Below, piece after piece: positions 2,770-60,218 of a stretch of DNA of 64,000 nucleotides (position 1 is its first letter; every line of letters begins with the position of its first letter). Origin of the DNA: Nemertoderma westbladi (Eukaryota; Animalia; Xenacoelomorpha); NCBI GenBank assembly GCA_032718475.1, contig JAUCBJ010001165.1:13460-77459 (forward strand), given 5' to 3'. Position numbers and translations under genes: made by a program. The notes under the pieces were generated by a model. The model searched no databases. It had not been told where the DNA came from and saw nothing but the letters and a program-made list of their open reading frames with translations.

Positions 2770-4045
2770 TTAAGACCTTTGGCAGTTTAACCCGCCAAAT
2801 CTATATGTCTTCTAGGTTATAAATCGACTTTAGCCTATGACAAGTATTTGATACAAATAAATCCAACATTAGCCGAAGCCAGTCTATGCGCGACCATTCA
2901 CCCACTGGATATACCCGGGAGACTGGATTTGGATGCATTAATTTGATTGCGGTGCAGGCCTACCGTACTATTCGATTGATCGTTAATATATAATCTCTGA
3001 CAAATATTATTCACTTTCGGGAAATATTAGCAGTTCCTTTAGGACGTGGCGCTCTATCCATATAAACAGAGCTATGACTTACACTATACACAACGGGATG
3101 GCTTATAGATCACAAAAGGTGCATTCTTTAGGAAATGCTTTGTTACTCGGTCAAGCACATACAGACTATTGCACACCACTGCACACTGAATTGCCGATAT
3201 TCACTGATTTTAATCATGTATAAAGAGAATAGCAACCGACATTTGTAGGGCCTATTAAGTAGCATTGAATTCACTACAAACCACGATAATGTATGTCGCA
3301 ATTGCTATATGTAACCGGTCTCTCTAACCTTAGTGTATCAAGAAGATTGGGGTTTCTGATCGTTTATCAATATTCTCCAAATAACAATATGCAAACGAAT
3401 GATACAATTAATAACAAACGGTAAATAGCAGTAAATAATGCGGTGAAAAGCAGTTTGAGTTTACAGCACGTAGTATGCAGTACCGTGCCAGACCAGGTAG
3501 GTAGTGTGCCAAGTTAACCAAGATAACAGTTTTGTGATCCTTTAATTAAAGACGTTCTAATGTTGGAATAATTCAGAAACATTCCACAGCCGGTGTTCTA
3601 AGCTGGGAAAAACGTCATTACTGAATCATGTGATTCTGCTGTACAGTTTTCATACAAAGAGGAAAATCTCTCTGATTGGTCAAACTGGCTGAGCCGAACA
3701 AAGAACCAAAGCTCCTGGCAAAAAGCTCTACGTGTACAGCTCAGCTGTTAGCTGTCGTCATAGTAACTACACTGTTTCAAGAGGATTTAGCGTATTGCGT
3801 CATAGAATTGCTAGTTATGTCCGCTAAAGTACACATACAGAAGAAATGGCTCTTTTATGTCCACTAAAACACCAGTACAGTAAGGATACGGCTTTTTAGG
3901 CCTGTTAAACCAACTACAGAGTACTTTGCGGGGAAAATAACCAGCCAATTCCGCAAAAGCTTTTACACCGCTCCCAGAAAATGGGATTTAATTCTATAAA
4001 ATATAAAAAATCACAGTTTCTAAAATATAAAAATACTCTAAACAG

Positions 4046-12177: not shown

Positions 12178-13509
12178 GTTTGATTGTACAGTTAAATGCC
12201 TACTGCTATATTACAGTTAAAGCAAGTCTAGTAATTCAGTATCACTGTTAGCCTAGTAATTAATTACCGATACTGTTACTCAGTGTAACGTGATATATAT
12301 ACAATATATTAGAATACCGGTATGCTTATAGTATATATATATAAGTATTATTACAGACTAGGTTTGTCACAGAATACCGGAATATAATTTTAGCACAAAT
12401 ATATATAAATATATAATAGGCCTATCGTGAATACCGGTATACAGCTTACACTTATAGTATATATAAGTATAATTATGGACTAGAATTAATTACAGAATAC
12501 CGGTATAATTTCAGCCTAAATTTATTGAAATAAATATAATAAGCCTATTGTAAATACCGGTATGTCAATTATTTTAAAATAATTGAATTTCTGAATGTTA
12601 GGGGTTACTTGGTTACTTTACCTTACTTTATTACCGTTATTTAAGCAGTAGTCCAACTGATATTGAGACCTAATTGTTGTATGGCAGACCTACTATTTAT
12701 AAATCGTTTGAGTTGATTTATAATATTTATACCCGTATGAGGGTTTTTGTTACAATATTGAAATAGATGTTATTATTTCTGGGAAGAAGTCACTACACAG
12801 AAGCTGTGCGCTCTCAGTGAAGTGCTACTTGTTGGACACTAAAACAAATAATTATAATTTACCTAAGTTACTTAATACTACAAGTTACGTACAATTTGGG
12901 GTGAGATTACAATCTCTAAATAAACGCAGAAATTACACGTACGAAATTTTGGGTAATTTTACAAGAAGTCTACAAACCAGCCTAACAGAGGGTTAGATTA
13001 TCTGGTTATTACAACGGACAGGGTACTACGGTATTTGAAAATAATAAGTAGTAGTAAATATACTGCGTTGTCCAGATAGGAAAAATACCACCGTCTGACG
13101 ACCTATAGCCGTATCGCTATAGGTACTACGTTATGTATCACGGAGTGTTCCTACCTAGAGATTAATTACCGCAGTCTACCAGAACCAACGTGGCTATTAA
13201 CCACTTTACAACACAAATATACTGCCTACACACTAATTACCTTCGGAAAGCACTGTACACTAAACCCTAAATTAGGTACAAGTACTTATAAAACAGATAA
13301 TCAGCAGTTAAAAATACTTGTACAGCCAAAAGAACCACGGTATCTGCTGGAGTGACTGGGGCACAAGATCACCAGTCTTTACCTACGCCAAGCAGCCCTG
13401 ATGTAGTACCGGGGTTAATTTAACTATAATGGTATGTTAACAAGCACAATTACTGTAGGAATAAACTTGGGGATATGAATGTTGCGAATAATCGCATAAA
13501 CTCTGAATA

Positions 13510-14660
13510 ATAAATATTACGCTACGCGTACAAACTACTCAAACAAAATGCAGACCAAATGCTGACAGACTACTATCAAGCCTAAACAAACTACGGTATA
13601 TGCAGACTCCGAAATGGTTAGTTAGTATGCGTTCTAACTGAGTAGTACGACTTATTCTTTCGAGGGGGTTTACCTCACAGCACTGGAAGCCCCTACGTTC
13701 CTAACTGGCACTTTATCGGACATACACTCTATACACAACGTAATCTCCTTCGACCTAACAACAGTCAGACAACAATCCAGCCTACAAATTATCTAAATAA
13801 GAAATATTACGCTACCTGTGCAGACTATACAAACAAAGTACAGACCAAACGCTGGCAGACTACTATCAAGCCTAAATAAACTACAGTATATGCAGACTCC
13901 AAAATGGTTAGTTAGTATGCGTTCTAACCGAGTAGTACAACTTATTCTTTTGAGGGGGTTTACCTCACAGCACTGGAAGCCCCTACGTTCCTAACTGGCA
14001 CTTTATCGGACATACACTCTATACACAACGTAATCTCCTTCGACCTAACAACAGTCAGACAACAATCCAGCCTACAAATTATCTAAATAAGAAATATTAC
14101 GCTACCTGTACAGACTATACAAACAAAGTACAGACCAAACGCTGGCAGACTACTATCAAGCCTAAATAAACTACAGTATATGCAGACTCCAAAATGGTTA
14201 GTTAGTATGCGTTCTAACCGAGTAGTACAACTTATTCTTTTGAGGGGGTTTACCTCACAGCACTGGAAGCCCCTACGTTCCTAACTGGCACTTTATCGGA
14301 CATACACTCTATACACAACGTAATCTCCTTCGACCTAACAACAGTCAGACAACAATCCAGCCTACAAATTATCTAAATAAGAAATATTACGCTACCTTTA
14401 CAGACTATACAAACAAAGTACAGACCAAACGCTGGCAGACTACTATCAAGCCTAAATAAACTACAGTATATGCAGACTCCAAAATGGTTAGTTAGTATGC
14501 GTTCTAACCGAGTAGTACAACTTATTCTTTTGAGGGGGTTTACCTCACAGCACTGGAAGCCCCTACTTTCCTAACTAGTACTTTTTTGGACATACGCTCT
14601 ACACACACTACAATCTCTTCAGACTTAACAACAGTCAGACAACAGTCCAGCCTACAAATT
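13510..14660. repeat. Four tandem 290-bp units in the 5' UTR of element A
   Basis: TACTATCAAG at 13571, 13861, 14151 and 14441; the inner copies are nearly identical. Confidence 0.95.
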
Positions 14661-14934
14661 TTCTGTACAATCTGAGCAGGCTTACATGCCTTCTGCACAA
14701 TATTGGCCTACAAATAAATAAAACCTGACAGAAATTAGTAAAATCTCAATGAAAAACCAGGGCTGCAGTCCCTGACTTAATATCAAGACCTACCGGTATA
14801 TAATTATCAAAATCGAATAATACTGCTGTACCTCTACTGCTGTAAGTACCGGTCCGGATGGTTAGGTAGTCAGGCCTACTGGGTACCGGTTGCCGGTACT
14901 TCAGCTTTATTGCATACACTGCAATCTAGAAAAT

Positions 14935-14945
14935 AAAACTGTTAT
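14935..14945 (-). promoter_or_regulatory. Non-tRNA primer-binding site of A (sense ATAACAGTTTT)
   Basis: Abuts the 5' LTR end; perfect inverted complement at 15710-15720 inside the LTR. Confidence 0.75.
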
Positions 14946-15780
14946 TGTTCTCGCTTTTAAGACCTTTGGCAGTTTAACCCGCCAAATCTATATGTCTTCT
15001 AGGTTATAAATCGACTTTAGCCTATGACAAGTATTTGATACAAATAAATCCAACATTAGCCGAAGCCAGTCTATGCGCGACCATTCACCCGCTGGATATA
15101 CCTGGGAGACTGGATTCGGATGCTTTAATTTGATTGCGGTGCAGGCCTACCGTACTATTCGATTGATCGTTAATATATAATCTCTGACAAATATTATTCA
15201 CTTTCGGGAAATATTAGCAGTTCCTTTAGGACGTGGCGCTCTATCCATATAAACAGAGCTATGACTTACACTATACACAACGGGATGGCTTATAGATCAC
15301 AAAAGGTGCATTCTTTAGGAAATGCTTTGTTACTCGGTCAAGCACATTCAGACTATTGCACACCACTGCACACTGAATTGCCGATATTCACTGATTTTAA
15401 TCATGTAGAAAGAGAATAGCAACCGACATTTGTAGGGCGTATTAAGTAGCATTGAATTCACTACAAACCACGATAATGTATGTCGCAATTGCTATATGTA
15501 ACCGGTCTCTCTAACCTTAGTGTATCAAGAAGATTGGGGTTTCTGATCGTTTATCAATATTCTCCAAATAACAATATGCAAACGAATGATACAATTAATA
15601 ACAAACGGTAAATAGCAGTAAATAATGCGGTGAAAAGCAGTTTGAGTTTACAGCACGTAGTATGCGGTACCGTGCCAGACCAGGTAGGTAGTGTGCCAAG
15701 TTAACCAAGATAACAGTTTTGTGATCTTATAATTAAAGACGTTCTAATATTGGAATAATTCAGAAACATTCCACAGCCGG
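14946..15780 (-). repeat. 5' LTR of element A, PBS-proximal part
   Basis: Matches 1190-1204 plus 2774-3593; interrupted by element B. Confidence 0.95.
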
Positions 15781-17103
15781 TGTAAAAGCTTCTGTGGGAT
15801 AGAACTGGCACTTAGCTCCGCAATCCAGTTATCTCCCCGTGCGCTCAAATACTCTAAAACCCTGCTGTGGAGTGTTTACGGATATAATCCGTTCCCTGGC
15901 TCACAAAGTACCGTATATGTAAAAGCTTTGTGGGATGACTGGCTCGTTTGCCTTGCTAAACAGTTCCCCCCCCCATCGCTGTGATACTCTCAAAGGGATC
16001 TGGCTTGAATGGCAAGCTGCCTGTTGGTTGGCTAGATTGCTCCTCCCTGGATGGAAGCTCTCAATAAGCCTGCCTGACATATCTGCCAATAAGATTGGAG
16101 CTAGTTCTGATTTTGTCCAATACCAAGCTACTGAACTGAAAATCCGCTCTGTATGCTCCTAGGTTTCGCTTTTGATTAAAGTTCTTAGTTTTTCATCATT
16201 CAGTCACGAGTTTTAGACTTCTAAGCGAGGAGTGTTATAAGATCGGTTCTGAGATGACGAAATGTTTTCTGCCTTTTGTACGAACATTGGTAGGCTAAAT
16301 TATAGAAAGCATAACTGTTATCTTACTTAAATTAACAACTTACCATATTTCTCGTTCAATCACTTAATAACTCGACTCAATGCAACAATTATATCTTAAC
16401 CTACCGTCATACTGCTTTTACTGTTTGTAATTTTGTATCAGTATAATTGGATGTTATTATTTGAAGAATATCAATAATCAACCCACATTTTCCCAATCTC
16501 CTTGATACACTACAGGTTAGAGAGAAGGGTTATGTACAACAATTGCGACTTTATTATTGTGTTTGTAGTGAATCTAATGTTGTTTGACAGACACTACCTG
16601 AGTCCAGTGCATATCTCTTTATACCTGATCAAAGTCAGTAAATGTCGGCATACCAGTGAGCAGTATTGTGCGTTACCGGTAGCGTGAGTGATTGTAACGT
16701 GATTGGATCTGATAACAAAGCATTCCTAAAGAATGCGCCTTATGCTTGAAATATAAGCCCTATCGTTGTGTTTAATATAAGTCATAACTCTGTTTACATA
16801 GGTAGAGCGCCACGTCCTAAAAGGAACTGCTAATATTTCCCGAAAGTGAATAATATTTGTCAGAGATTATATATTAGTGATAAATCGAATAATACAGTAG
16901 GCTTGCCCGCAAATAAATTTAAGCCCACGAATCCAGTCTCCCGGTGTTATATAACGGGTCATTTGGACGCGCATGGACTGGCTTCGGCTAATGTTCTGAC
17001 TTGTTTTTATATTAAATCTTGTCATCGTATAAAAGGCTATTTATCAATAAAGACATATAAATTTCGGCAGGTTAAACTGCGGAAGGTCTACAAAGCGCGT
17101 ACA
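15781..17103 (+). repeat. 5' LTR of element B
   Basis: Direct repeat of 33385-34708. Confidence 0.97.
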
Positions 17104-17114
17104 ATAACAGTTAT
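17104..17114 (+). promoter_or_regulatory. Non-tRNA primer-binding site of B (ATAACAGTTAT)
   Basis: Immediately after the LTR-terminal ACA; no TGG; exact reverse complement ATAACTGTTAT at 16311-16321. Confidence 0.75.
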
Positions 17115-19159
17115 AAATCTTAATTTGCGGCAAGCAATAAGGTTAGAAAGTACCGGTCGACCGGTAAAGTAGAACCGGTACTCCAGTAGGTCCGTAGGTC
17201 CAACTGCCAGAACCGGTACTCTTGTAGGTCAGTAGGCCCTACTGCCTGAACCGGTACTGCTGTACAAGTACCTTAGTATTATTTCGATTGTGATATTATA
17301 CATTGGTAGGCTGTTTAAGAAATTAGGGACTGTACGTACACCCCTTGTTTCTTTTGGAGCTTATTTATTTCTGTCAGTTCTTATTTACGTGTAAGTTAGT
17401 ATTGAGTAGAAGACGTGTAAGTCTGCTCAGATTGTTCAGATCATTGTAGGCTGGACTGTTGTCTGACTGTTGTTAGGCTTGAAGATTACAGCGTGTGTAG
17501 AGAGTCTGATAAAGGCCAGTTAGTAAGTTGAGGCAACTCATAGTTGTAAGGTCAACCCTCTTTAAAGAATAAGTCGCGCTACCGTATTAGCACGCATACT
17601 CACTAACAAGTTTCAGAATCTGCATATACTGTGGTTATTTAGGCTTGATAGTAGTCCGTCAGCGTTTATACTGTACTGTCTGTATAATCTGTTCAGGTAC
17701 CGTAATAGTATTATTTAGATATTTTGTAGGCTGGATTGTTGCCTAGCTGTTGTTGGTCTGAAGAATTGCCGCGTGTGTAGAGTGTGTCTGATAGGTGCCA
17801 GTTAGTAAGTTGGGGCAACTCGTAGTTGTAAGGTCAACCCCCTCTAAAGAATAAGCCGCGCTACCGTGTTAGCACGCATACTCACTAACGAGTTTCAGAA
17901 TCTGCACATCCTGTAGTTTATTTAGGCTTAATGGTAGTTTGTCAACATTTGGTTTGTATTTTATTTGAGTATTCTGTACGGATAGCGTAATATTTATTAC
18001 TCAGAGTTTATGCGATTACTCGCAACATTCATGTCCCCAAGTTTATTCCTACAGTAATTGTGTTTGTTATACATACCGTTATAGTTAAATTAACCCCAGT
18101 ACTACACGGGCTGCTTGGCGTAGGTAAAGACTGGTGACTTAGTGCCCCGGTCACTCCAGCAGATGCTGTGGTTCTTTTAACTGTTCAAGTATATTTAACT
18201 ACTGGTTATCTGTTTGACAAGTACTTGTACCTAATTTAGGGTTTAGTGTACAGTGCTTTCCGAGAGTAATTAGTGTAGGCATTATTGTGTTGTAAAGTAG
18301 TTAATAGGCACGCTCGTTCTGGTAGACGGCGGTAATTAACTTCTAGGTAGGAACACTCCGTAGATACATAACGTTGTACCTATAGCGATACGGCTGTAGG
18401 TCGTCAGGCGGTGGTATTTTCCTATCTAGACAACGCAGTATTTACTTCTGCTTATTATTCTCAAATACCGTAGTATCCTGTCCGTTGCAATAACCAGAAG
18501 ATCTAACCCTTTGTTGGACTGGTTATTAGTTCCCTGTAAAATTGCCCTAAAAATTTCAGTGCGTAACGTTTTGTCTGTTTATTAGAGATTGTAATCTCAC
18601 CAATAGTAAGTAACTAGTAGATAAGTAACGTAGGCCAGTAGAATTATTCTGTATAGTGTCTCATAGGTAGCACTTCACTGAAAGCGCACAGCTTCTGTGT
18701 AGTGGTATTTTACTGGAAATAGTAACACCTATTTCAATCTTGTAACAAATCCCTTATCAGGGTATATATATATTATAAATCAACTCCAAAGATTTATAAA
18801 TCAGTAGGCCTGTCATAAAACAAGTAAGTCTCAATATCAGTTGGACTACTGCTTACATAACGGTAACAGAGTAACTCAAGTAACTAAGTAACTTATAATT
18901 TCAGAAATTCAATTATCCTAAATAATTGATGTACCGGTATCTCTAATAGGCTTATTATACAATTGTATATATTTGCACTGAAATTATATACTGGTATTCT
19001 GTGAAAAACCTAGTCTGTTATACTTATATATACTATAAGTGTATACCGGTATTTTAATATTGCAATTAATTACCGGTACTAGGCCAACAGTCTTACTGAA
19101 TTACTGGACTTGCTTTAACTGTGACTATAGCAGTAGGCATTCAACTGTGCAACTGAGAT

Positions 19160-22100
19160 ATGTCTGACACACAACAGAATCTGTCGGACAGTCCACCAGA
19201 CATTACACAGAACCTGTCGGACAGTCCACCAGACACTACCATCTGTGACTCAGATAGGAGTGATAAGACTGATAGGACTCAGACAGAGCCCAGTTCACCT
19301 CCTACTGAAAGGAAAGTCACCCCTCTAGTAGTAGAATCAGATCCCAAGCCAACACACCATAGGTCTATTATAGGCACTCGGGCCCAGGTAAAACGGAACC
19401 GAGAAGAAGCTGGCCCATCACAGCAACCTCCTGGCCAAGAACCTAGTTCCCAGCAACCCGATAGCTCCAGTAATTCTGATACTGTAGAGCTGAACCCCGA
19501 ACGCGGAGTGGAGACAGTGGATCCATCTTACCTTGATCCCTTTCTCACTCTCCCGACCGCGAAGATGGCTGCGGTCTTGATTGCGGTGGAGGAACACCAA
19601 GGAGATTGGGCGAGAAATAAGAAATCGACCCAAGAGAGTTATTGGGGATACGCAAGGGAAGAATTGATGTCTGTCGTCGAGTCAAACTGGAATAATCCTG
19701 GAATAGGATTACCGCTCGATTTGTCAGAAGCGACTTGGGAAGATATACACAAGATGGGTGTGGCTAAAGATACTATGGATCCAGCTGTTTGGAAGAGGTC
19801 CGCAGCAGGATATGTGCAGGGATTCTTCAGCTCCTTACAGAGGCAGGAAGAACAGCTGTTTCGACAAACCCTAGGACCTCAAGAGCAGGAAGAGCTGCTT
19901 TATCAAGTACGTGCAAGTACATTACGCATTAGGCTGATCCTATCGGCCTTTGAGGAAACATCTAAAAGAAGGCAAGACACGTCGCTGCAAGTGGCGGTCA
20001 AGACTTGGTTCCAGCGGATAGAGCCCAAGGTTAAAGAAACAGCCCAGTGGAAATCCCGACTGGCTGAGCGACCAACCGATGAGGAATCAACTGGTGCCAT
20101 CCTTTCTCAAGTGGAAAGTGAAGAGGCGGCAGAGGGACCGCGAAAGAGAGACGCAATCGATACCTATTTGTCAGATTATCAGCGATTCATAGGAGACGAG
20201 GAGCTGAGAAGACGGCTGGCTGGATTTTCACCTAATAGTGAAGGAGCTAAGCGTGTGTTGGACTCAATTGATGCTGAGATGTTAGCTGCACATCAAGCTA
20301 AATTTGATGAAGAAAGACGCATCGCTAGAGCCCAGGAAGCACAAGTCCAGAAAAAACGAATAGAAGATCGAAAAGCAGCTGCAGTGGCAGCAGCAGAGGC
20401 AGAGGCAGAAAGAAAAGCAGCAGAGGCAGAAAGAAAAGCAGCAGAGGCAGAAAGAAAGGCAGCAGCAGCAGAGGCAGAGGCAGAAAGAAAGGCAGCAGCA
20501 GCAGAGGCAGAGGCAGAAAGAAAGACAGCAGCGGCAGAAGCAGAAAAGAGAGCGTCTGAAGAGATCGCCCAACTAGAGTTGGAAACTCTGCAAGAGACCC
20601 AAGACGACATTAGTAAGCGTTTTACAGAAGGTCGAATGCAGATAAAAGGTCGATCTAATTCCAAACGCCTAGGGTATACATCCTCGGAGGAAGGAGATAC
20701 CACCGACCCTGAAGGTGGAGGAAATAGATCTCGTCTCAGTAGGCGTAAAAGAATGTCTCCCCGTCAGAGATTGCCTGATTTGCCTCCAGCTGTTAGAAGA
20801 CAAATATCTAGCACTGCAGTAGGTAGTACAGAACCCACAGACCGAACTATTACCATCACCAGACTCCCTACTATAGTAGATGAGCCGGAAATAATTAAGC
20901 CTGTTCTAGAAAACACCCCTTCGGTGAGAGAGACCCCTGTACTCCCCAAACCTACTACAAAATTCCCTTTACACAGTACTATTAAATTGACTGCACCTGG
21001 TGGAGCAGCCCAAGTCCCAGTTCTGGAGACCGAGAGAGACATACAAGATTTGTCTCCCGTCGTCCCGATGCGGCCCGCTACAACGTTGGCGACTCCCGCT
21101 TCGGCGGTCGAGTGGGTTGAGAAGGGACGGCGGGAGATGAGTCTCTTGCTCGGTCAAATGAGAGAACAGCGGGACTGTTCCTCCCAACAGATCCGGGACT
21201 TAGAAGGGACTGTCTACCAACTCAAGGGAACAGTAAGGGATAGTAGGATAGAGCTGCAAGAAGTGCAGCAAAATATCGCGCTCGAGCGCGACAAATTAGT
21301 CAATATACAAAGGGGAATACCAACACCCCCTGTAACCCTGTGTCAACCTGCTAGGTCTGAAGTGTATCATGCGCGAGGTGTGTCGCCTACACGCATATAT
21401 ACTGCTAGCAAAGTAGAAACACCCCCCGTAACCCTGAGTCAGCCTGTTAGGTCTGAAGTATATCATGCGCAAGGTGTGTCGCCTATACGCATATATACTG
21501 CTAGCGAAGTAGAAACTCCTATAGTAAACCCTATTAAGGGAGATTACAAACCTGTGAGTGATGATATTCCCTATAGACCTGATAATAATCCGAAAAATTT
21601 ATATACCGATAATTCGATATTAAATAACACGATGGCCCAAGAAAGCTTTACGCGTCAGATGGCTAGAACAGAAGCCCGCCAAGCGGTCAAAGTGGGAGAA
21701 ATTGTCAAATTCAACGGAGATGAGATGAAATGGTTACCTTTTAAAGAATATTATGAAGATAGCATACAGAACTCTGTACTATCTAGCGGAGAGAAACTGA
21801 GATTCCTCATCAAATGTTTGGAAGGACCTCCCAAGTTAATGGCGTTGAAGTTTATTGGACATCCAAATGGATTAAGACAAGTCTGGGATACATTAAACAC
21901 CAGGTATGGTAATAAAGATAATATCGCTAAGTATTTGTATGCAAAACTGGTAGCTCCCCGAAAGTTCCTTAGTAACGAGATTATAGAGTTTTCCGATGAG
22001 ATTCAAGAAATCTGCAGGCAATTGGATTGGTTAGGTAAGTCCCATGAATATCAGAGCTCCATGGTTATCGGAGCCATAGTCTCTACTTTGCCAAAGGGTG

Positions 22101-25100
22101 GAGTATGTACACGTTGGGACAAGAAGGTGTTGCATATGATGGAACAACAACGAAGGAGTCCTATCATGGCGGATCTCATGTCATTCCTAGACTGCGAGGT
22201 CAAACTACAGCTAATCAAGCAATCCCGAGAAAAAACATCGGAAACCAAGGTAAGTGAGAAACCCGTTTCTAGGAGGAGAGTAACCCCAGTATGTTATACT
22301 GACGAAGGCGAGAGCCAAGTTTCTCAAGAAGAAGACAGCGGAAAGGACACAGACCACTCTTATTATTTTAACAAAAACTCGAGTGACGTAAGTAAATACC
22401 AACCTCGAACCAATGATAGGAGAGATAAGTTTACCAAGACCCCTCCTCAGTCTCCCAAAAGAATTCAGGTAAGAAAGCCCGAAGAAAGAACCAAAGTGCA
22501 TAACATTACCCAAGGTAAAGTGAGCAACATCAAGTTAAACTGTGCACTGTGCGACGGGCTCCACCGCTTGGGTGCGTGTGCTGAATTCCTAAAGAAACCC
22601 CTAGCAGACAGGAGAGAAGTCGTGTGGAATAAGCGGTTATGTTATAATTGCCTCAGACCAGGACACCAACGGCAGACCTGTTACTCCGATATAAGGTGTG
22701 CAAAGTGCGGTGCGAAACATCACAGCTTGCTACATAGTGAACTCGACCGAAACCACCCGAGTCAGGTAAGTGAGCCCGAACTGCACGTCCAATTCAGTGA
22801 TGTGAACGACACCGACCAAGGTTCTGAGTGGGAGGGATTCTACACAGACGAATTCTCTGATGCCAACGAATCCTGTTATCTAATAAACACCGCAGTGTAT
22901 CGAGCACTTACGTACGAAAAGGACAACGATACGGAGTTTCCATCAACCCCCTTGGATAAGCAACCATCTTGGAAAGTTCCAACATCCAACATAGGAATAC
23001 GAGAATTTCCGGTAGTCCAGGTAAGAGTTCACGGTCCCAACAAAAGTTACATAGTGAACGCCCTCCTTGACTCAGGTAGCACCGGAACATTCATCGACAA
23101 GGAATTGGCCGAGGATATTTTTGCTGGACAACCCAAATTCCGAACTAAGTTAAATATGTCCGGAATTATGCAGGTTTGGAAATCTACCTTAACGGCAGAT
23201 TACTATATCGGCTCATTGTCCACTCCACAGGATAGATTAGGGGAACAAAGTATAAGGTCAGTAAAAATGGTGGCAATAAAGAACTTCGCTACTACTCAAG
23301 TAGAACCTTATGACTGGGACGAGGACGAGAACATCCAACATCTAGGAATACCTCGATTCCAAACTGATTATCCTGGAGTACAAATCCTCATAGGCCAAAA
23401 CGCGCACGAGGCGCTCGAGACGTTAGAGAAACGGCCTGCTCAACCGCAGCCATTACAACCTTATGCGGTGAGAACTCGAGTAGGTTGGTACTTCACTGGC
23501 CCTTCCCGTAGAACCCTTGAAGAAAGACTGCCACAAGACCGGACACTTCAAGTGAATGATTGGGAAGAGGAGAGCAGTGAGGTTGACGAACTCACTGAGG
23601 GAATACAATACTCCTCAGACAACGACAACACCTACCAACTCTTCGAGGAAGAGCACACGATCGATTTATTAACCGAGAATAACACATGGAGTGACCAGCA
23701 AACTTTGTGTCAACTAATTTATCCATCAGGATCTATGGACTACAATGACGAACTCAATGAAGAGATAGAGCGTCACAACGCTAGAACCCGAGACGAACTT
23801 GCCGTACGATTCTTTACCCAAGAGCTAGTAGAACCAAATTCGTACGATAAGGCTCTATCAATAGAAGAGGAAAGAGCCAAGCAAATTCAGGAAACAACTA
23901 CGCGTTTTCTAAAAGATCAGGGTAGGTATGAAATCGGCCTACCATTTCGAAAACGAGAACCTAGATTTATAAACAACAGACCCTTGGCCGAGAAAAGACT
24001 CTCTCAATTGCATCGACGCCTTACGGCAAACGCTTCAGCTAAAGAAATGTACCAAACGCAGCTGAAGAAATTTATTAGCAAGGGTTATGCGGAGCGAGTA
24101 CCGGAAGAAACACCCATAACAGAGAGAACATACTACCTAACACATCATTATGTTCCCAAACCCGGTAAACCACATGAAGTACGCGTGGTATTTGATGGCT
24201 CCGCCCTATATAAGGGTCAATCTCTGAATTCCGAGTTGCTACCAGGACCCAACTTACTACAATCACTGTTGGGAATACTTCTGAGATTAAGACAATATTC
24301 TATAGCGTTCGCCTCCGATATCGAAGGAATGTTCTTACAGGTTAAGGCGTTAGATAAAGATAGAGACAGTTTAAGGTTTCTATGGTGGCCTGAAGGAGAC
24401 CTCCAACGGACACCAGAGGAGTACTGGATGACCATCCAAGCTTTTGGGATCATATCCAGTCCTTCCAACGCCTGCTCCGTAGTACGAACTACTGCGGATG
24501 ACAACCGAGACGCCTTCTCCAAAGAGGTGATTGACAACATCAAGAAGAACATCTACATGGACGACAATTTAAAGTCCCTTCCATCGGTAGAACAAGCCAT
24601 TGAGGTCGCGAAAGGAACGGTAGAGTGTTTGAAAAGAGGTGGATTTCGACTGACGAAATTCACTAGCAACTCCCGCGAGTTTCTAGAAGCGATACCGATA
24701 GAAGACCGAGGAGCGAAAGACCTCGATCTGATAAAAGACGATCTTCCAGAGACCAAGACGCTTGGCTTAAAATGGGACACAGAAAGAGATATCCTGTTTT
24801 TTCAACTAAAACAGCGCGAGAATCCAGTTCGGACCAAACGGATTTGTCTAAGTATCCTGAGCACTTATTTCGACCCATTAGGATTTATTAGTCCAGTCAT
24901 ATTGATTGCTCGGAGTTTAGTACAGCAAATGTGGCTGGAAAACCACTCATGGGACGATCCACTTACGGGAGAGCTACTAAAGAAATGGATGAAATGGGAG
25001 GATTCTCTACCTGCCATCGAGAGTTTTATAATTTCCCGTTCATATTTTGGTCATGTTCTCCCTACGTATTCCTATCAACTCCATGTGTTTGGAGACGCGA

Positions 25101-27439
25101 GCGACACGGGAATAGGAATAGTAGCATACCTTCGAGTCGAGACTCCAGATGGAATCAAAGTCGCCTTGGTTACCTCTAAGGCATTGATTAATAACAAGTT
25201 GAAGGTTCCTCGAGCGGAGTTGAAGGCGGCTCTCTACGCTACAGCCATCGGACGGAATGTAACGGAACAGATCGATTATACACTGGAGAAAACTGTGTAT
25301 TGGACCGACGCTTTGCTCGTGTTGGAATATATAACCAATGAAGTCTGTCAGTTCAGCGTCTTTGTCACCAACCGAGTGGCCATCATCCTCAGTCGCACAA
25401 CGATAGACCAATGGAGACACTGCCCTGGTACGATTAACCCAGCTGATATCGCCTCCAGAGGAGCAACTCCACAAGAACTGATAGATACTCCAGACTGGTT
25501 GGGTGGACCCGACTTCCTAAGCAAGGAAGAGGACGAATGGCCTCCTCACCTTACTACGGCGGAGATCAGACAAGCCAAGGGAGCGGAAAAGATTAAACCA
25601 AAAACCCGAGCGAGCAAATCGAAGTTATTCAAACCGCCGATCGATCTATCTGTATTACATGCTTCTGGAAATGATGCTTCGGATCCACAATCCCTCGTCA
25701 CAAACAAATCTGTTGTGGAAATTAAGGACAAAGATTGGCGATCTGGAACACCAGACGTCTCGCAAGGAATCTCACCCCTGTTGCAGAGAGCAATACAACA
25801 TTACAGTTCCTGGAATCGGCTCTGTAAGGCCGTCGCTTATTTAAAACGATTCTTTCATCATCGTTATTCTGGGACGAAGACCACTGGTGATGCTGCACCA
25901 CTGACAACAGCCCAAGTCCATGTTATTAAAGATTTACCGAAATACAAAACACCATGCCGGTTTCTAAAAGAAAAGATCAGTTATCAGGAGCATGAAGAAG
26001 CCAATAAACAAATACTGCGGCTCCTGCAATGCTACGAGGATTCTGACAAGTACTTCCTGCTGTTAAGAAACCCGCAGATGCGCTTGAGGGATCGCTTCTC
26101 TAGCATAATGATCGATGGGTTAATACGTGTTGGAGGAAGGCTTACCAACGCGCCATTGTCCTTTGACACTAAATTCCCCATAATAGTTAGAAATCTTGAA
26201 GTACAAATCAAGATGATTGTAGACGCCCACAGTAAATTATATCATGCTGGTAGAGAACGAGTTCTTAGCGAAATTCGAACGCGCTATTATTTCTATAAAC
26301 CCCGTAGAGCTCTAAATCAAGTTCTTAGGAACTGCATACCCTGTAGGAAAGCATTCAGTAGGCCTTTAACACAGCGAGAGGCAGAATTACCTAGGGAACG
26401 AGTAAGCTTTTATGAACCACCCTTTACTAATACTGGTGTGGATTTATTTGGCCCTATTGAAGTATATCGTGCTAGGACTATAGTCAAGAGATGGTGCGTC
26501 GTCTTCGTGTGCATGACTTGTCGAGCCATCCATCTTGATATGGTGAACGATCTATCCACTAACAGCTTCGTCTTAAGTTTACGACGACAGATCGCTCGCT
26601 TCGGAACTAGTAATACCATGCGATCGGACAAGGGAACGAACTTCATTGGCGCCAATAACGAAATCCAGGCTTACGTAAAGGACTGGAACCAAAGACAGGT
26701 GGACGATCAGCTAAGAATAACCGCGTCTAGCTGGACCTTCAACGCCGCCGACGCCCCTTGGTGGGGAGGAAGTTGGGAGAGATTGATTCGGAGTGTTAAG
26801 ACAGCATTTCACTTTATAGTGCCGTGCCGTGCGTATCTCACCGACGAACTTTTGCGAACGTTAATGGAGGAAATCGCTGCCTATCTCAACGAGAGACCGC
26901 TTATGCCAGTCTCATGGAGTCCCGATTCCCTGGAAGCGCTAACACCCGCGCACTTCCTACTTAAGAAACCTGTAGCCATGCTTCCCCAATCCGAGATTGC
27001 CGACGGAGACGAATATTGCCGCCGAACTTGGCAACTTATGCAGTTGCTATCTCGTCGTTTCGCTGATCACTTTGAAAAGCATTATCTGCCCACACTACAA
27101 CTTCGAACTAAGTGGTTTGCGCAGCAAGAAAATGTCAGCGCCGGAGACATGGTGCTTATTGTGGATCCCGACCTCCCACGTAAGCGGTGGCAGACAGGAC
27201 GCATCATAGAGACTCACATTTCAAGTGACGGTTTGGTACGATCAGTAGAACTCGTAGTTATGCGGCGTAACTTCAAAAAACCGGGAATAATATTTGAGAC
27301 GCAACAACTCAATCGCCCAGTTGGTCGTTTATGTTTATTAGAAAGAGACAGAGAACTCTCCGGAAACTATGGAAGGCAAGACACTCTTCCCACGACCACC
27401 TCCCTAATTCCTCAAACATCTAGGGACTCCCCGCCTTAA
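19160..27439 (+). CDS. BEL/Pao Gag-Pol polyprotein (2759 aa): long N-terminal extension, Gag, three zinc knuckles, aspartic protease, RT, RNase H, integrase
   Basis: KFNGDEMKWLPF Gag core; CALCDGLHRLGAC, CYNCLRPGHQRQTC and CAKCGAKHHSLLH knuckles; LLDSGS; VRVVFDGS and IYMDD; VFGDAS and PRAEL; HCPGTINPADIASRG; HSKLYHAG...CIPC, GVDLFGP, RSDKGTNF, GGSWERLI. Single ORF in PR-RT-RH-IN order typical of BEL/Pao. Confidence 0.98.
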   Translation: MSDTQQNLSDSPPDITQNLSDSPPDTTICDSDRSDKTDRTQTEPSSPPTERKVTPLVVESDPKPTHHRSIIGTRAQVKRNREEAGPSQQPPGQEPSSQQPDSSSNSDTVELNPERGVETVDPSYLDPFLTLPTAKMAAVLIAVEEHQGDWARNKKSTQESYWGYAREELMSVVESNWNNPGIGLPLDLSEATWEDIHKMGVAKDTMDPAVWKRSAAGYVQGFFSSLQRQEEQLFRQTLGPQEQEELLYQVRASTLRIRLILSAFEETSKRRQDTSLQVAVKTWFQRIEPKVKETAQWKSRLAERPTDEESTGAILSQVESEEAAEGPRKRDAIDTYLSDYQRFIGDEELRRRLAGFSPNSEGAKRVLDSIDAEMLAAHQAKFDEERRIARAQEAQVQKKRIEDRKAAAVAAAEAEAERKAAEAERKAAEAERKAAAAEAEAERKAAAAEAEAERKTAAAEAEKRASEEIAQLELETLQETQDDISKRFTEGRMQIKGRSNSKRLGYTSSEEGDTTDPEGGGNRSRLSRRKRMSPRQRLPDLPPAVRRQISSTAVGSTEPTDRTITITRLPTIVDEPEIIKPVLENTPSVRETPVLPKPTTKFPLHSTIKLTAPGGAAQVPVLETERDIQDLSPVVPMRPATTLATPASAVEWVEKGRREMSLLLGQMREQRDCSSQQIRDLEGTVYQLKGTVRDSRIELQEVQQNIALERDKLVNIQRGIPTPPVTLCQPARSEVYHARGVSPTRIYTASKVETPPVTLSQPVRSEVYHAQGVSPIRIYTASEVETPIVNPIKGDYKPVSDDIPYRPDNNPKNLYTDNSILNNTMAQESFTRQMARTEARQAVKVGEIVKFNGDEMKWLPFKEYYEDSIQNSVLSSGEKLRFLIKCLEGPPKLMALKFIGHPNGLRQVWDTLNTRYGNKDNIAKYLYAKLVAPRKFLSNEIIEFSDEIQEICRQLDWLGKSHEYQSSMVIGAIVSTLPKGGVCTRWDKKVLHMMEQQRRSPIMADLMSFLDCEVKLQLIKQSREKTSETKVSEKPVSRRRVTPVCYTDEGESQVSQEEDSGKDTDHSYYFNKNSSDVSKYQPRTNDRRDKFTKTPPQSPKRIQVRKPEERTKVHNITQGKVSNIKLNCALCDGLHRLGACAEFLKKPLADRREVVWNKRLCYNCLRPGHQRQTCYSDIRCAKCGAKHHSLLHSELDRNHPSQVSEPELHVQFSDVNDTDQGSEWEGFYTDEFSDANESCYLINTAVYRALTYEKDNDTEFPSTPLDKQPSWKVPTSNIGIREFPVVQVRVHGPNKSYIVNALLDSGSTGTFIDKELAEDIFAGQPKFRTKLNMSGIMQVWKSTLTADYYIGSLSTPQDRLGEQSIRSVKMVAIKNFATTQVEPYDWDEDENIQHLGIPRFQTDYPGVQILIGQNAHEALETLEKRPAQPQPLQPYAVRTRVGWYFTGPSRRTLEERLPQDRTLQVNDWEEESSEVDELTEGIQYSSDNDNTYQLFEEEHTIDLLTENNTWSDQQTLCQLIYPSGSMDYNDELNEEIERHNARTRDELAVRFFTQELVEPNSYDKALSIEEERAKQIQETTTRFLKDQGRYEIGLPFRKREPRFINNRPLAEKRLSQLHRRLTANASAKEMYQTQLKKFISKGYAERVPEETPITERTYYLTHHYVPKPGKPHEVRVVFDGSALYKGQSLNSELLPGPNLLQSLLGILLRLRQYSIAFASDIEGMFLQVKALDKDRDSLRFLWWPEGDLQRTPEEYWMTIQAFGIISSPSNACSVVRTTADDNRDAFSKEVIDNIKKNIYMDDNLKSLPSVEQAIEVAKGTVECLKRGGFRLTKFTSNSREFLEAIPIEDRGAKDLDLIKDDLPETKTLGLKWDTERDILFFQLKQRENPVRTKRICLSILSTYFDPLGFISPVILIARSLVQQMWLENHSWDDPLTGELLKKWMKWEDSLPAIESFIISRSYFGHVLPTYSYQLHVFGDASDTGIGIVAYLRVETPDGIKVALVTSKALINNKLKVPRAELKAALYATAIGRNVTEQIDYTLEKTVYWTDALLVLEYITNEVCQFSVFVTNRVAIILSRTTIDQWRHCPGTINPADIASRGATPQELIDTPDWLGGPDFLSKEEDEWPPHLTTAEIRQAKGAEKIKPKTRASKSKLFKPPIDLSVLHASGNDASDPQSLVTNKSVVEIKDKDWRSGTPDVSQGISPLLQRAIQHYSSWNRLCKAVAYLKRFFHHRYSGTKTTGDAAPLTTAQVHVIKDLPKYKTPCRFLKEKISYQEHEEANKQILRLLQCYEDSDKYFLLLRNPQMRLRDRFSSIMIDGLIRVGGRLTNAPLSFDTKFPIIVRNLEVQIKMIVDAHSKLYHAGRERVLSEIRTRYYFYKPRRALNQVLRNCIPCRKAFSRPLTQREAELPRERVSFYEPPFTNTGVDLFGPIEVYRARTIVKRWCVVFVCMTCRAIHLDMVNDLSTNSFVLSLRRQIARFGTSNTMRSDKGTNFIGANNEIQAYVKDWNQRQVDDQLRITASSWTFNAADAPWWGGSWERLIRSVKTAFHFIVPCRAYLTDELLRTLMEEIAAYLNERPLMPVSWSPDSLEALTPAHFLLKKPVAMLPQSEIADGDEYCRRTWQLMQLLSRRFADHFEKHYLPTLQLRTKWFAQQENVSAGDMVLIVDPDLPRKRWQTGRIIETHISSDGLVRSVELVVMRRNFKKPGIIFETQQLNRPVGRLCLLERDRELSGNYGRQDTLPTTTSLIPQTSRDSPP

Positions 27440-29072
27440 TGCGTCTGGAGTGGGCGTATGACTATAATATTTTCTCTGTTTTATTTATTTTATATAAATA
27501 TTATTATTTACTTTATTATAATCGTTTTTATTTAATTTTAGTTAAGTAGAATGTTATTTTGGATTATTTGGTAGACTAGTGCAATATATTAGTGTTTATT
27601 ACGTAATTACCTAATATACTTAGTGCGACGACGAGAAACAATTATTTTTCTCTTTCCTTACTGTCCGTATTATATTATAAACGCGAGACTATAGTAAGAT
27701 GATATGTCCGTACTTATTAAAGTACAATAAAGCCACTACTATATTTCGTGTATTATTGGTAGGCAGAGTATTAGGAATGCAAAGTTCAGATCCTCGTGTC
27801 TCGGCTAAACCAAGCTCTGGGTAGACCTTGGAAACGACTTGCCTCTTCACACTGACATTGCTTCGTGCGATATTGCTCTTCTACCTATATTAAATAATAC
27901 ATATAGTAGCGTGATGTCCCTCTAACAGTAGCGTAAAACGCAAATAAATCTGTTAAACTTTTTGACCATCTGTAATTCTAGTCGATTAAGATATCGTGGC
28001 ACCCACCGATATACTTGAAAGACAAATTCTAGAATCAGTGGTTAACGTCCCCAGACAAGTTCTGGAATAAATCCCGTGTAGTGCCCATCTTAAATATTAA
28101 TTTAATATTTATTAAAATCTGGCAAATTCAGATCCTTTAAAATTTCTAGTCAATTGAGATATCGTAGCACTTACCGGTATTCTTAAAAGACCATTTTATA
28201 GAATTAAGGATCTTATGTCCCCAGATATGTTCTGGAATCAAAATTGTGTCAATTTCACCATCAAATAATAAAATTCACGGGAATAAATCTAGAATTCATA
28301 TTTTTATGAATTTAATAAATTGTCATTTTGCACAATTTCTAATATTCCCAAAATTCCACTAATTAATAGATCACGGGAGCGGAGATTCATTCGATTGAGT
28401 GTGCTAGAGTGCGAGAATCTCCAACATATAGTCAATAGCCGATAAAATTCATAAAGTCATGTATAAAGAGGATATTGACAAACTAAAGACTTACTATCAA
28501 ACAGCATCCCAGATCTGTATGCATGAGAACTACCCTAATTCTACCGCTAGCTTTACATAATGTCACCATAGCAACACCCACGCTAGAATTAGAAACGAGT
28601 TAAAAGAACAATAGAAAACTTGTACCGTTGCCTAGCATAGTGATTATATAGCACACGGTTGGTATCCAAGGATACACAATAACAACAACGTGACATTCTG
28701 GAAGGCATTGACTAACGGACAAATGGCCTGTATGATGGTAGTTGGTAGCTGTTGTGTGGAATTTGTGCGTTTGTAGGTGAATGTTGCTGCTAAAGTGTGT
28801 TTACAGTAGCTAGTCGCAATTGTAAGATAACCCAACTCTCCCATAGCAAGAACCTCAAGTGATTACAAGCCTTTGGGACGGACAGTGGAGTGACTTGTGC
28901 CGGTTATCGTTGTCGTGCTGTTGCCACAACGTTGGCGTAAACACCGCGACAGCGGTACATCGGCGCTGAGAATCCCACTGCCCGGGGGGCCTCGATTAGT
29001 AGGCAGCGACGCCCGCTAGCCTAAAACATATATATAAACTCGTTACAATATTGGTGGATCGCGATAGCAGAT

Positions 29073-31484
29073 ATGACGGAATTGATAGAAGATGATCTTG
29101 GTATCAGGGAGCGATATAATGTACCTTTGCAGGCGTTTGTGGATAGCTTGATAAGTGGTGAACCCGGTCACACCACTACGGAGGAAGATGGTCGTTACAT
29201 CGAACCGCCAATGTCCCAAGAGCAACTCACGCGTGAATTGGACTATAGAAAATTCACCGCTCGCTATACGCATCGTAATGGTACGTATATGGACTTTCTA
29301 ACCACCGGCCATCCGATCGACCTACATGATACGGACGATGTAGACACCGAAAGAGAAATGGTTTTGTTTAAATACCACGCTCAGCGGAGTCGTAACGATA
29401 AACCAAGAATAGACCACGATAACTCTATTCGTAACCGGCTCGACCGAGAAAACGTTGAGGAACCCGATAAGCGTATCAACTTCAACGACTACCTGGAATT
29501 TTTGAGAGAAACTTATCTCAATATTGCCAGTCAACAAAACCTAGAGACTCGATATCCTCAAGGTATACATCATGATCCCATGGTAGAACTCCAACGACTC
29601 TATTTCACCATGATGTATCTCACGGCCGATCGTCCACTACCCGTGGTTCCCGATAGCTTTGCACAAATGGAGGAGTATTGCAAAACTGGAGAACGATCAC
29701 CCGCATTCCCTCTACAGGACGTACGTCTATGGTATTATTGTGACGAATGCCCTAGACCCAACCAACAAACCGAAAGAAGTAAACATCCGCGGAGACGTTG
29801 CGCTAAACACAGTTTTACGCGTTGTACGTACGGGAGTTTCGAGCGAAACCTGTTCGATGTATCGCCCACGGTCGCTCGTCTCAAACAATCACTCAATAAA
29901 CCCATGATCAGAGTTCCGGAATACTCGGTCAGGCCTCCTCATTCCCCTATTAGACCTCAAACTCTTGATCCTAATAGTATCACTGATCCTCCCGAACTAT
30001 ATTCTCTGTTCAAAGACGTGGTGTTACCTGAGCAGTTAATAGGTGGTACTCCGGTAGTGGGTTCTTTAGACATTCGACCATCCTACCTAGCCGGATTGGG
30101 ACGCGGGCATCTTATATCGCCATTTAATCCCTACAACCGCCCCGGATTAACCCCGATTCAACCTGCCACGGAAGTCGAGGAGAGCGTTATCAGAAATGCT
30201 TTAGACGCTATTCGACAGAAAATCGGGAAAGGAACACAGGATTACCTCGAGAAACGTAAATTACAGCAACAAGTCCAAGCGGTGAAGGATTTAGCCTTAC
30301 CACAGTTCGATCGAGAGATACAAAACCTCGAGAACGACATCGAGCTGGGACGCACGTACTCTCTACAGGAGTTTCTAGATGAGCGTATGCGACAACGAGC
30401 GGAGGAGAACCAACTCGAAAGGAAACATACGGAAATGGACGAGAGGGAAGAAGCCGCTTTAGCTCAACCCGAAGCCCAAATCCTTATGACGGACCTCTAC
30501 TCTAAAACTATCCGTCATCCCTCGATGATTCCCAACTTCGGAGATAAACTCTTCGCGAAAGTACAACCCCAACCGGTCGATATTAGTACAGGATCGCACC
30601 AGCTTATCGCCGACGCCCCCATGTTACAGCGCCCGCCGATCGAAGCTGCTCGCGTTGACAGTATACTCGTTGAACCTCCGGACAATCGAGCGGATCTTAT
30701 CCGTCGTATGGTACACGATGTCAACATACGCGCTCGTCCTTTAACGAACTCGTTTTATGGGATTAAAGATCACCCTTATTACGTTAATCTGACTCAATAT
30801 TATATGATAAAACCGGAAGATCCTATGCATAGCTTGAAGTTTCTACCGTTAATAAATCCTCTGGACATTGTCGAACTCGAGCAATTACAGAAACATTTGG
30901 ATCAGTTAGTAAAGGTAAACTCATTTAGAAAACCATATAACATTTCTAGAATTGAGAATGATACGATACCTCCTTATAACCTCGATGGCTTCATTAAAAC
31001 TCGATTAGTCCATTGGAATCTCGACGTATTATTCGAGGAGGAGAGAATAAAAAGACACGGAAATATGGAGACGTGTAACACTCAATCCTTGAAGTATAGT
31101 GATCTCCCTGACGCTAACCAATGTGCTACCTTGTGGCACCCGGTAGGGATGACCCTCGAGAACGCTACAAAGGAGTGGAATGAAACTCTTAATATCATTG
31201 AGATGTATGGAGTAGTTACCTACGATAATGAAGGCAGCGTTCCAGTCGGAGAATTAGGAACTACGCGCATGATCCATATACGCGGATTAGCCGGTTCTAC
31301 CCACGTGTTTACTCAAGCGTGCTCCGACGTGATTGATTATTCTTTTGAAACTCTCACCGAAACACAAAAGAATCTCCGGCATGGACAATTCGTACTCGCG
31401 CAGCGTTACGTCATTGACACCGAACGTAAACCGGATGCTACCCCAACCCGTGCTCGAGATGTTGTTCAACGAAAAGATCCTTAA
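29073..31484 (+). CDS. Extra ORF (ORF3) of element B, N-terminal part; frameshifted within the exonuclease-like domain
   Basis: 803-aa ORF conserved in A and C; contains VVTYDNEG (ExoI-like); a 20-bp deletion after 31434 relative to C shifts the frame. Confidence 0.85.
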   Translation: MTELIEDDLGIRERYNVPLQAFVDSLISGEPGHTTTEEDGRYIEPPMSQEQLTRELDYRKFTARYTHRNGTYMDFLTTGHPIDLHDTDDVDTEREMVLFKYHAQRSRNDKPRIDHDNSIRNRLDRENVEEPDKRINFNDYLEFLRETYLNIASQQNLETRYPQGIHHDPMVELQRLYFTMMYLTADRPLPVVPDSFAQMEEYCKTGERSPAFPLQDVRLWYYCDECPRPNQQTERSKHPRRRCAKHSFTRCTYGSFERNLFDVSPTVARLKQSLNKPMIRVPEYSVRPPHSPIRPQTLDPNSITDPPELYSLFKDVVLPEQLIGGTPVVGSLDIRPSYLAGLGRGHLISPFNPYNRPGLTPIQPATEVEESVIRNALDAIRQKIGKGTQDYLEKRKLQQQVQAVKDLALPQFDREIQNLENDIELGRTYSLQEFLDERMRQRAEENQLERKHTEMDEREEAALAQPEAQILMTDLYSKTIRHPSMIPNFGDKLFAKVQPQPVDISTGSHQLIADAPMLQRPPIEAARVDSILVEPPDNRADLIRRMVHDVNIRARPLTNSFYGIKDHPYYVNLTQYYMIKPEDPMHSLKFLPLINPLDIVELEQLQKHLDQLVKVNSFRKPYNISRIENDTIPPYNLDGFIKTRLVHWNLDVLFEEERIKRHGNMETCNTQSLKYSDLPDANQCATLWHPVGMTLENATKEWNETLNIIEMYGVVTYDNEGSVPVGELGTTRMIHIRGLAGSTHVFTQACSDVIDYSFETLTETQKNLRHGQFVLAQRYVIDTERKPDATPTRARDVVQRKDP

Positions 31485-31530
31485 AATCGGTTCCGCTGTT
31501 TATTGAGATCTACAAAATGACTTTCGAAAT

Positions 31531-33306: not shown

Positions 33307-33370
33307 CGGTTTAGAGTATTTATGTATATTAGAAACTGCGATTTTGTATATTTTATAGACTTCAATCTCA

Positions 33371-33384
33371 TTTTCTGGGAGCGG
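33371..33384 (+). promoter_or_regulatory. Polypurine-tract-equivalent (TTTTCTGGGAGCGG)
   Basis: Abuts the 3' LTR; identical in A (3968-3981) and C (44274-44287). Confidence 0.7.
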
Positions 33385-34708
33385 TGTAAAAGCTTCTGTG
33401 GGATAGAACTGGCACTTAGCTCCGCAATCCAGTTATCTCCCCGTGCGCTCAAATACTCTAAAACCCTGCTGTGGAGTGTTTACGGAGATAATCCGTTCCC
33501 TGGCTCACAAAGTACCGTATATGTAAAAGCTTTGTGGGATGACTGGCTCGTTTGCCTTGCTAAACAGTTCCCCCCCCCCATCGCTGTGATACTCTCAAAG
33601 GGATCTGGCTTGAATGGCAAGCTGCCTGTTGGTTGGCTAGATTGCTCCTCCCTGGATGGAAGCTCTCAATAAGCCTGCCTGACATATCTGCCAATAAGAT
33701 TGGAGCTAGTTCTGATTTTGTCCAATACCAAGCTACTGAACTGAAAATCCGCTCTGTATGCTCCTAGGTTTCGCTTTTGATTAAAGTTCTTAGTTTTTCA
33801 TCATTCAGTCACGAGTTTTAGACTTCTAAGCGAGGAGTGTTATAAGATCGGTTCTGAGATGACGAAATGTTTTCTGCCTTTTGTACGAACATTGGTAGGC
33901 TAAATTATAGAAAGCATAACTGTTATCTTACTTAAATTAACAACTTACCATATTTCTCGTTCAATCACTTAATAACTCGACTCAATGCAACAATTTTATC
34001 TTAACCTACCGTCATACTGCTTTTACTGTTTGTAATTTTGTATCAGTATAATTGGATGTTATTATTTGAAGAATATCAATAATCAACCCACATTTTCCCA
34101 ATCTCCTTGATACACTACAGGTTAGAGAGAAGGGTTATGTACAACAATTGCGACTTTATTATTGTGTTTGTAGTGAATCTAATGTTGTTTGACAGACACT
34201 ACCTGAGTCCAGTGCATATCTCTTTATACCTGATCAAAGTCAGTAAATGTCGGCATACCAGTGAGCAGTATTGTGCGTTACCGGTAGCGTGAGTGATTGT
34301 AACGTGATTGGATCTGATAACAAAGCATTCCTAAAGAATGCGCCTTATGCTTGAAATATAAGCCCTATCGTTGTGTTTAATATAAGTCATAACTCTGTTT
34401 ACATAGGTAGAGCGCCACGTCCTAAAAGGAACTGCTAATATTTCCCGAAAGTGAATAATATTTGTCAGAGATTATATATTAGTGATAAATCGAATAATAC
34501 AGTAGGCTTGCCCGCAAATAAATTTAAGCCCACGAATCCAGTCTCCCGGTGTTATATAACGGGTCATTTGGACGCGCATGGACTGGCTTCGGCTAATGTT
34601 CTGACTTGTTTTTATATTAAATCTTGTCATCGTATAAAAGGCTATTTATCAATAAAGACATATAAATTTCGGCAGGTTAAACTGCGGAAGGTCTACAAAG
34701 CGCGTACA
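33385..34708 (+). repeat. 3' LTR of element B
   Basis: Direct repeat of 15781-17103. Confidence 0.97.
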
Positions 34709-34713
34709 GCCGG

Positions 34714-44273: not shown

Positions 44274-44352
44274 CCGCTCCCAGAAAATGGGATTTAAGTC
44301 TATAAAATATACAAAATCACAGTTTCTAAAATACAAAAAATACTCTAAACAG

Positions 44353-59935: not shown

Positions 59936-60218
59936 ATCTGAACAATCTGAGCAGACTTACACGTCTTCAGCTCAATATTAACTTACTAGTAAATAAAACC
60001 GACAGAAATAAGTAGAATCTCAATAAAAAATCAGGGCTGCAGTCCCCGATTAAGTTCTAAGACCTACCGGTATACAATAATCAAAATCGAATAATACTAA
60101 TGTACTTATACAGCAGTACCGGTTATGACAGTTGGGCCTACTGACCTACAGAAGTACCGGTTCAGGTTTACCGGTCGACCGGTACTTAGCAACCTTATTG
60201 CCTACTGCAATAAGATCA

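Follow-up and report, generated by a model that had tools for sequence, protein, structure and literature searches.

A BEL/Pao retrotransposon family that probably primes reverse transcription with its own RNA

Three related LTR elements, which we call A (minus strand), B (plus strand) and C (minus strand), lie in a 64-kb window, the whole stretch of DNA that was analysed. In each of the three, 11 nt starting at the very first base after the 5′ LTR are perfectly complementary to an 11-nt motif inside that LTR. The motif's last base lies opposite the base that immediately follows the LTR, the position at which a minus-strand primer has to end. We consider it probable, by analogy with Tf1, that minus-strand DNA synthesis in these elements is primed by the element's own RNA after cleavage by RNase H. 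This reading draws on a match that many relatives possess only in spliced form, that lies at the primer position and that is written in different letters in each family, a combination that fits poorly with a DNA-binding site, a host RNA or chance. The signature extends beyond the family of A, B and C, and most of the relatives need splicing for it.

Element B (15781-34708, plus strand, 18.9 kb) is bracketed by the target-site duplication GCCGG (15776-15780 and 34709-34713). Comparison of its two LTRs places the 5′ LTR (TGT..ACA, 1,323 nt) at 15781-17103 and the 3′ LTR at 33385-34708, both on the plus strand and 99.8% identical, with a polypurine tract, GGGAGCGG, just upstream of the 3′ LTR (33377-33384, plus strand). 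An open gag-pol reading frame of about 2,760 aa (19160-27439, plus strand) encodes Pao-type domains, namely DUF1759, zinc knuckles, a protease with LLDSG, a reverse transcriptase (RT) with YMDD, RNase H/Peptidase_A17, integrase and DUF5641. Motifs at residues 1303, 1800, 1978 and 2428 give the order PR-RT-RH-IN. Pfam returned four hits on B (DUF1759, Peptidase_A17, Integrase_H2C2 and DUF5641), and PF05380 is present in 120 of 120 homologs among those listed. The homologs with names, about 40% identical, are uncharacterised proteins of marine invertebrates, namely cnidarians, echinoderms, a mussel and a ribbon worm. Two further reading frames follow on the plus strand: ORF2 (29073-31484, 803 aa), which is 92% identical to its copy in C, and ORF3 (31531-33306, 591 aa), which has CCHC-like knuckles and a C copy about 90% identical. 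Searches with both gave no Pfam family, no envelope family and no usable Atlas match, and neither frame was found in the 123 related loci described below. For ORF3 no credible sequence homolog was found, its best match, P0121, being a repeat-rich protein that looks spurious.

Element C (43101-61428, minus strand, target-site duplication CGCTG) has LTRs that are 97.2% identical and that LTR comparison places at 60230-61428 (5′) and 43101-44273 (3′), both on the minus strand; its RT is 95% identical to that of B. Element A is defective, having lost its RT region, and B is nested in its 5′ LTR. The downstream part of this LTR lies at 14946-15775 (minus strand) and the upstream part at about 34714-35081, past B. 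The 3′ LTR of A covers 2770-3967 (minus strand), with its final bases near 1190-1204. About 12 nt before the end of this LTR sits a 1.56-kb DNA element (1205-2769, ends CCCTATTA..TAATAGGG, TTAA duplication), presumably piggyBac-like, that carries 163-nt tandem repeats. A 38-nt satellite at 1-1192 and 35085-37018 was the insertion target of A, and B later entered A's 5′ LTR. The 2-kb leader contains a 290-nt unit (13502-14664, 17432-18005 and 59367-59946) present in four copies in A and about two each in B and C. Between the elements, at 38102-39058, an intronless ORF encodes a predicted membrane segment and a fibrinogen C-terminal domain.

The predicted self-primer motif of B, ATAACTGTTAT, lies at 16311-16321 (plus strand; 3′ LTR copy at 33916-33926), 793 nt from the LTR end, and its complement, the predicted primer-binding site ATAACAGTTAT, which contains no TGG, lies at 17104-17114 (plus strand). 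In C the predicted motif at 60999-61009 pairs with a predicted site at 60219-60229 (both minus strand) over a distance of 780 nt. In A the distance is 775 nt. Here the predicted motif, AAAACTGTTAT, at 15710-15720 (minus strand) has its second base changed, identically in the 3′ LTR (3523-3533), and the predicted site, ATAACAGTTTT, at 14935-14945 (minus strand) carries the matching change. Comparison of 5′ and 3′ LTRs puts the LTR end (..ACA) directly 5′ of the 11-mer in all three elements; in A, the 3′ LTR end used to set this border sits past the inserted DNA element. The first-pass annotation had given these motif and site pairs with their positions and sequences, and all of them hold. It had also described the elements as free of a TGG-type tRNA site, in agreement with which the 26 nt that follow the LTR in B and in C contain no TGG, nor does the region after the LTR of A.

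A compensatory change in A had likewise been proposed, and is borne out by cross-pairing. The site of A pairs over 11 nt with A's own LTR and over 9 nt with the LTR of B or C, and the sites of B and C pair over 9 nt with the LTR of A. In B and C the motif forms an odd palindrome, identical to the primer site except at the centre base; in A the palindrome is broken and pairing over 11 nt is retained. Within the window the covariation amounts to a single base pair, which we count against own-RNA priming. The same annotation was right that pairing stops at 11 nt, for which it named the PBS-distal side and which holds on both sides of the duplex in all three elements. It was right, too, that the flanks of the motif are diverged (53-67% identity on either side). 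Rather than a sharp U3/R border, the motif is an invariant island of 12 nt: between elements, the preceding 300 nt are 54-66% identical, the following 100 nt 53-67% and the remaining LTR 76-85%. An alternative 12-bp pairing with G-U in C is absent from A and B and was rejected. What we take to be a likeness of the primer to the Tf1 primer sequence is given no weight in the argument.

In dinucleotide shuffles of each LTR, 11 nt of pairing was reached in 3, 4 and 3 of 1,000 (p 0.003-0.004 each); because A, B and C belong to one family, these three tests amount to about one. The figures thus leave some room for a chance complementarity in an AT-rich LTR that three copies have inherited, there being one family, one compensatory pair and a p of about 0.003 before allowing for the number of windows screened. 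Chance would not account for an invariant island within diverged flanks, nor for the recurrence of the match in 8 of 11 families as against 2 of 536 cross-family pairs, and we regard it as extremely improbable.

That recurrence emerged from RT relatives. An RT alignment of B with 18 of its 120 listed homologs, used as the query, yielded 123 loci, of which metagenomes contributed 80 and genome bins 43. The 43 BEL/Pao loci from the bins (L081-L123) were found in bins of prokaryotic genomes and are likely to be host contamination. Of the 123 loci we kept 21 with a definable LTR end. TGG is absent from 14 of them; in the other 7, which serve as the outgroup, it follows the LTR at a distance of 0-7 nt. 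Duplicates (L007 and L055), a locus whose LTR start was not found (L028) and loci with cut or unclear ends were left out. The LTR ends of L062, L095, L097, L101, L114 and L071 were moved by a few bases by eye, and that of L095 is not CA. In RT trees B and C join the non-TGG elements (FastTree 0.97 with 116 sequences; UFBoot 100 with 25 sequences), as their long-branched putative sister.

Two of the 14 non-TGG relatives, L017 and L081, have a contiguous complement of their own (10 and 11 nt, respectively), and five others have a shorter complement that starts right after a splice-acceptor-like AG. In 9 of the 14, perfect pairing of 10-15 nt exists only across a predicted GT-AG junction in the LTR. 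The introns predicted for these nine are 71-451 nt long, with a GTAAG or GTGAG donor and a pyrimidine-rich acceptor, and the length of junction pairing was matched by at most 1 of 200 shuffles per relative. Because the match is present only after splicing, it points to pairing of RNA and not to a DNA site. In A, B and C a splice junction gives no better pairing (6 nt, p 0.27-0.56). A perfect complement of at least 10 nt in either form is thus found in 11 of the 14 relatives (7 of 10 families), and in 14 of 17 non-TGG elements when A, B and C are included (8 of 11 families). The controls gave 0 of 7 TGG elements (Fisher p 0.004 by family), the LTRs of which are shorter on average, a difference for which the shuffles allow, and 2 of 536 cross-family pairs. 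These three results, from relatives, TGG elements and cross pairs, also lend support to the earlier inference that this BEL/Pao family self-primes.

Duplexes in the clade are 10-15 nt long, most often 11. The 3′ arm is always 0-4 nt away from the LTR end, and the paired stretch of the relatives lies about 50-220 nt from it. The strict test was missed in three of the 14 relatives (L052, 6 nt; L062, 6 nt; L086, 8 nt); tolerating one G-U lengthens these to 11, 11 and 9 nt, B reaching 10 under the same loose rule. A blind search gave a match of at least 10 nt in 9 of 14 loci, yet up to 22% of shuffles reach 10. The matches that it gave in L020 and L087 are doubtful, as is a 12-nt match in L038, and none of these is counted in the 14 of 17. 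Uninterrupted and junction forms are neighbours in the RT tree three times (L017/L018, L081/L082 and L063/L065), the primer forms of L018, L063 and L065 coming from the blind search; this arrangement suggests repeated loss or gain of the intron. In the LTRs of L082 and L085, AATAAA follows directly after the paired bases of the second exon, 45-50 nt before the LTR end.

Contigs from four public runs were compared with B. Among the 18 contig pieces listed, alignments end at 17114 in six and at 17115 in two, that is, at the end of the 11-mer. The most abundant contigs, considered over the motif stretch only, read G at 16314 and A at 16317 at about 96-100% of depth in all four runs, and we count these changed letters against own-RNA priming. 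In one contig from these runs, the number of mismatches leaves room for changes in the primer site without placing them, and it is given no weight. Public contigs cover the block around the motif (16256-16325) far more heavily than the LTR upstream of it, which suggests a conserved promoter or 5′-end signal across subfamilies. The LTR pattern had no matches in metagenome and viral contigs, and no relative was found when the RT alignment was compared with viral contigs.

The predicted folding of the RNA depends on where it starts. For RNA that begins at the motif, the helix between motif and site has a predicted P of 0.72 in B and 1.0 in C (0.7-1.0 per element), and of 0.96 in an alignment fold; with at least 40 nt of upstream sequence the prediction falls to 0.0 in B and C. 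Two predicted hairpins flank the primer site. One, in U5 just before the LTR end (17063-17084 in B, plus strand), is kept in A and C with a mean P of 0.97 in the alignment fold; its eight pairs among the three elements comprise five that are the same, one with a one-sided change, one compensatory and one broken. The other, in the leader (17116-17144 in B, plus strand), lies directly 3′ of the primer site and has four invariant inner pairs and an outer stem that is partly broken in A. From three sequences only, the three-duplex pretzel of Tf1 is not predicted: the flanks are predicted to fold as local hairpins, and the one long-range candidate reaches P 0.29. Rfam gave only three weak matches, far below threshold. 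The base two nucleotides before the paired stretch is a purine in every one of 16 elements, with A in 13 (background 0.25), a pattern found post hoc, counted with one row per close group and with 5 of the 16 rows taken from looser searches; the start may accordingly be 2 nt upstream of the motif. Taken together, the predicted fold, this purine and the narrow range of duplex lengths are indirect hints that the 5′ end of the RNA lies at or just above the paired stretch; the first-pass annotation had proposed the motif itself as the transcript 5′ end. An R-U5 of about 790 nt is long, and we count that length against own-RNA priming.

Own-RNA priming could also operate with a motif that is internal to the transcript, which would then start far upstream, or with the 3′ LTR copy or a second packaged RNA, one or two cuts freeing the primer. 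Such a version would spare the junction relatives a first exon of only about 3-11 nt, the length implied if their transcripts start at the duplex. No TATA box was found at -30, and an AG 5 nt before the motif is conserved among B, C and the 5′ LTR of A; about 45 nt upstream lies a T-rich block that is likewise conserved. However, the four intact LTRs that were examined have no conserved splice donor upstream, adding 40 nt or more of upstream sequence abolishes the predicted helix, and the fixed purine and narrow duplex length suggest a defined 5′ end. Within own-RNA priming, we hold an internal motif to be a minority possibility, unlikely but of some weight.

The helix could instead be structural or regulatory, closing R-U5 for packaging, dimerization or translation, with a host RNA that displaces it or acts as the primer at another place. 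Predictions give R-U5 a high degree of structure, and in B and C both sites are near-palindromes, which resemble dimer initiation sites. Yet the pairing is retained in A despite the lost palindrome, and the 3′ arm always falls within 0-4 nt of the LTR end, where a primer must end. Site sequences differ freely among families, so that no single host RNA fits as the primer that this explanation needs. It has a parallel in the fungal GalEa copia elements, which in excerpts from PMC5445492 have a palindromic non-tRNA site of unknown role at the primer-site position. On balance we find a structural helix improbable. A host tRNA half or other small RNA might also pair with the site, leaving the LTR motif as a by-product. 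Half-tRNA primers are known in copia lineages, according to passages in PMC6317226; no tRNA was found within the 64-kb window. Here the change between A and B/C would demand two host RNAs together with a parallel change in the LTR, and the splice-junction matches of the relatives would go unaccounted for, which makes such a primer very unlikely in our view.

Priming by the element's own RNA would proceed as follows. Transcription would start at the motif itself or as much as about 2 nt upstream, and the RNA 5′ end would fold back over about 790 nt onto the primer site, between the two predicted hairpins. The element's RNase H, a domain found in B, would then cut after the last paired base, as in Tf1, for which RNase H cleavage was reportedly described by Levin in 1996. 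The Tf1 primer is 11 nt long. From the 3′ end so freed, RT would copy directly into the ACA that terminates U5, giving a strong-stop DNA of about 780 nt. Plus-strand synthesis would copy the primer back into the primer site and so carry changes from arm to arm; such copying would keep the arms matched, and would account for pairing that stops near 11 nt throughout the clade. In most relatives the primer would exist only once the LTR intron has been spliced out, the family of A, B and C representing the uninterrupted form.

More broadly, we lean slightly towards the view that a large marine-animal BEL/Pao clade has dropped tRNA priming in favour of a primer made of roughly the first dozen bases of its own RNA. 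The host spliceosome would, in most families, create this primer by splicing a first exon of about 3-11 nt to a more downstream exon of the LTR, coupling replication to splicing, and A, B and C would form a deep, oversized, uninterrupted branch. Self-priming has so far been demonstrated in Tf1, and there are predictions of it in some gypsy and copia lineages. If the present reading is true, BEL/Pao is the third LTR superfamily with self-priming, and tRNA independence arose repeatedly. Host defences directed at tRNA primer sites, tRNA fragments among them, would then not reach the elements, and primer sites missing from annotations of marine animal genomes would be accounted for. Through the splice-junction primer of the relatives, splicing and reverse transcription would be connected in a new way. 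For A, B and C the predictions are exact to the base.

The first-pass annotation had noted that BEL/Pao elements are generally described with tRNA sites, and the ICTV profile of Belpaoviridae agrees, giving an 18-nt tRNA-Arg or tRNA-Gly site, tRNA priming and a length of 4.2-10 kb (PMC8742986). The present elements resemble the BEL/Pao elements of that profile in their single gag-pol ORF, PR-RT-RH-IN order, Pao Pfam domains, TG..CA LTRs, polypurine tract and 5-bp target-site duplication, and their LTRs of 1.2-1.3 kb are at or just above its range (PMC8742986). They differ in that B has no TGG site, measures 18.9 kb as against 4.2-10 kb and carries two extra ORFs of no known family. Because the tRNA-Arg or tRNA-Gly site that serves as a criterion is missing, we file A, B and C as a variant BEL/Pao lineage and not as a typical semotivirus. 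Among the titles and abstract openings listed from the open literature, none reports self-priming in BEL/Pao; Repbase, GyDB and subscription journals may carry comments on such primer sites. The main texts of PMC3118150, PMC554778 and PMC6238403 make no mention of a primer-binding site or tRNA, and excerpts from PMC3601003, PMC5445492, PMC6934838 and PMC8220671 hold nothing on BEL/Pao self-priming.

For the plant lineages Tcn1 (gypsy) and TAR (copia), passages in PMC6317226 predict self-priming by the rule of at least 10 nt complementary to the LTR, 0-5 nt after it; the same passages do not mention self-priming in BEL/Pao. A, B and C all conform to this rule of at least 10 nt, the plant elements belonging to other superfamilies. 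In the Tf1/sushi group of Ty3/gypsy chromoviruses, including Tf1, Tf2, Tj1 and Tosmo1-3, the self-primer lies at the RNA 5′ end, as excerpts from two sources describe (bioRxiv 10.1101/2022.12.06.519325; PMC4600332). So far as those excerpts go, A, B and C share with this group a primer site that adjoins the LTR, complementarity of that site to their own 5′ LTR and the lack of a tRNA site. Unlike Tf1/sushi elements, they have Pao domains, and no chromodomain is among the four Pfam hits of B. They also differ from Tf1 in an R-U5 of about 790 nt, in a pretzel that is not predicted, in relatives most of which need splicing and in being known from sequence alone. Thus, A, B and C are not members of the Tf1/sushi group but, by analogy, likely work as its members do.
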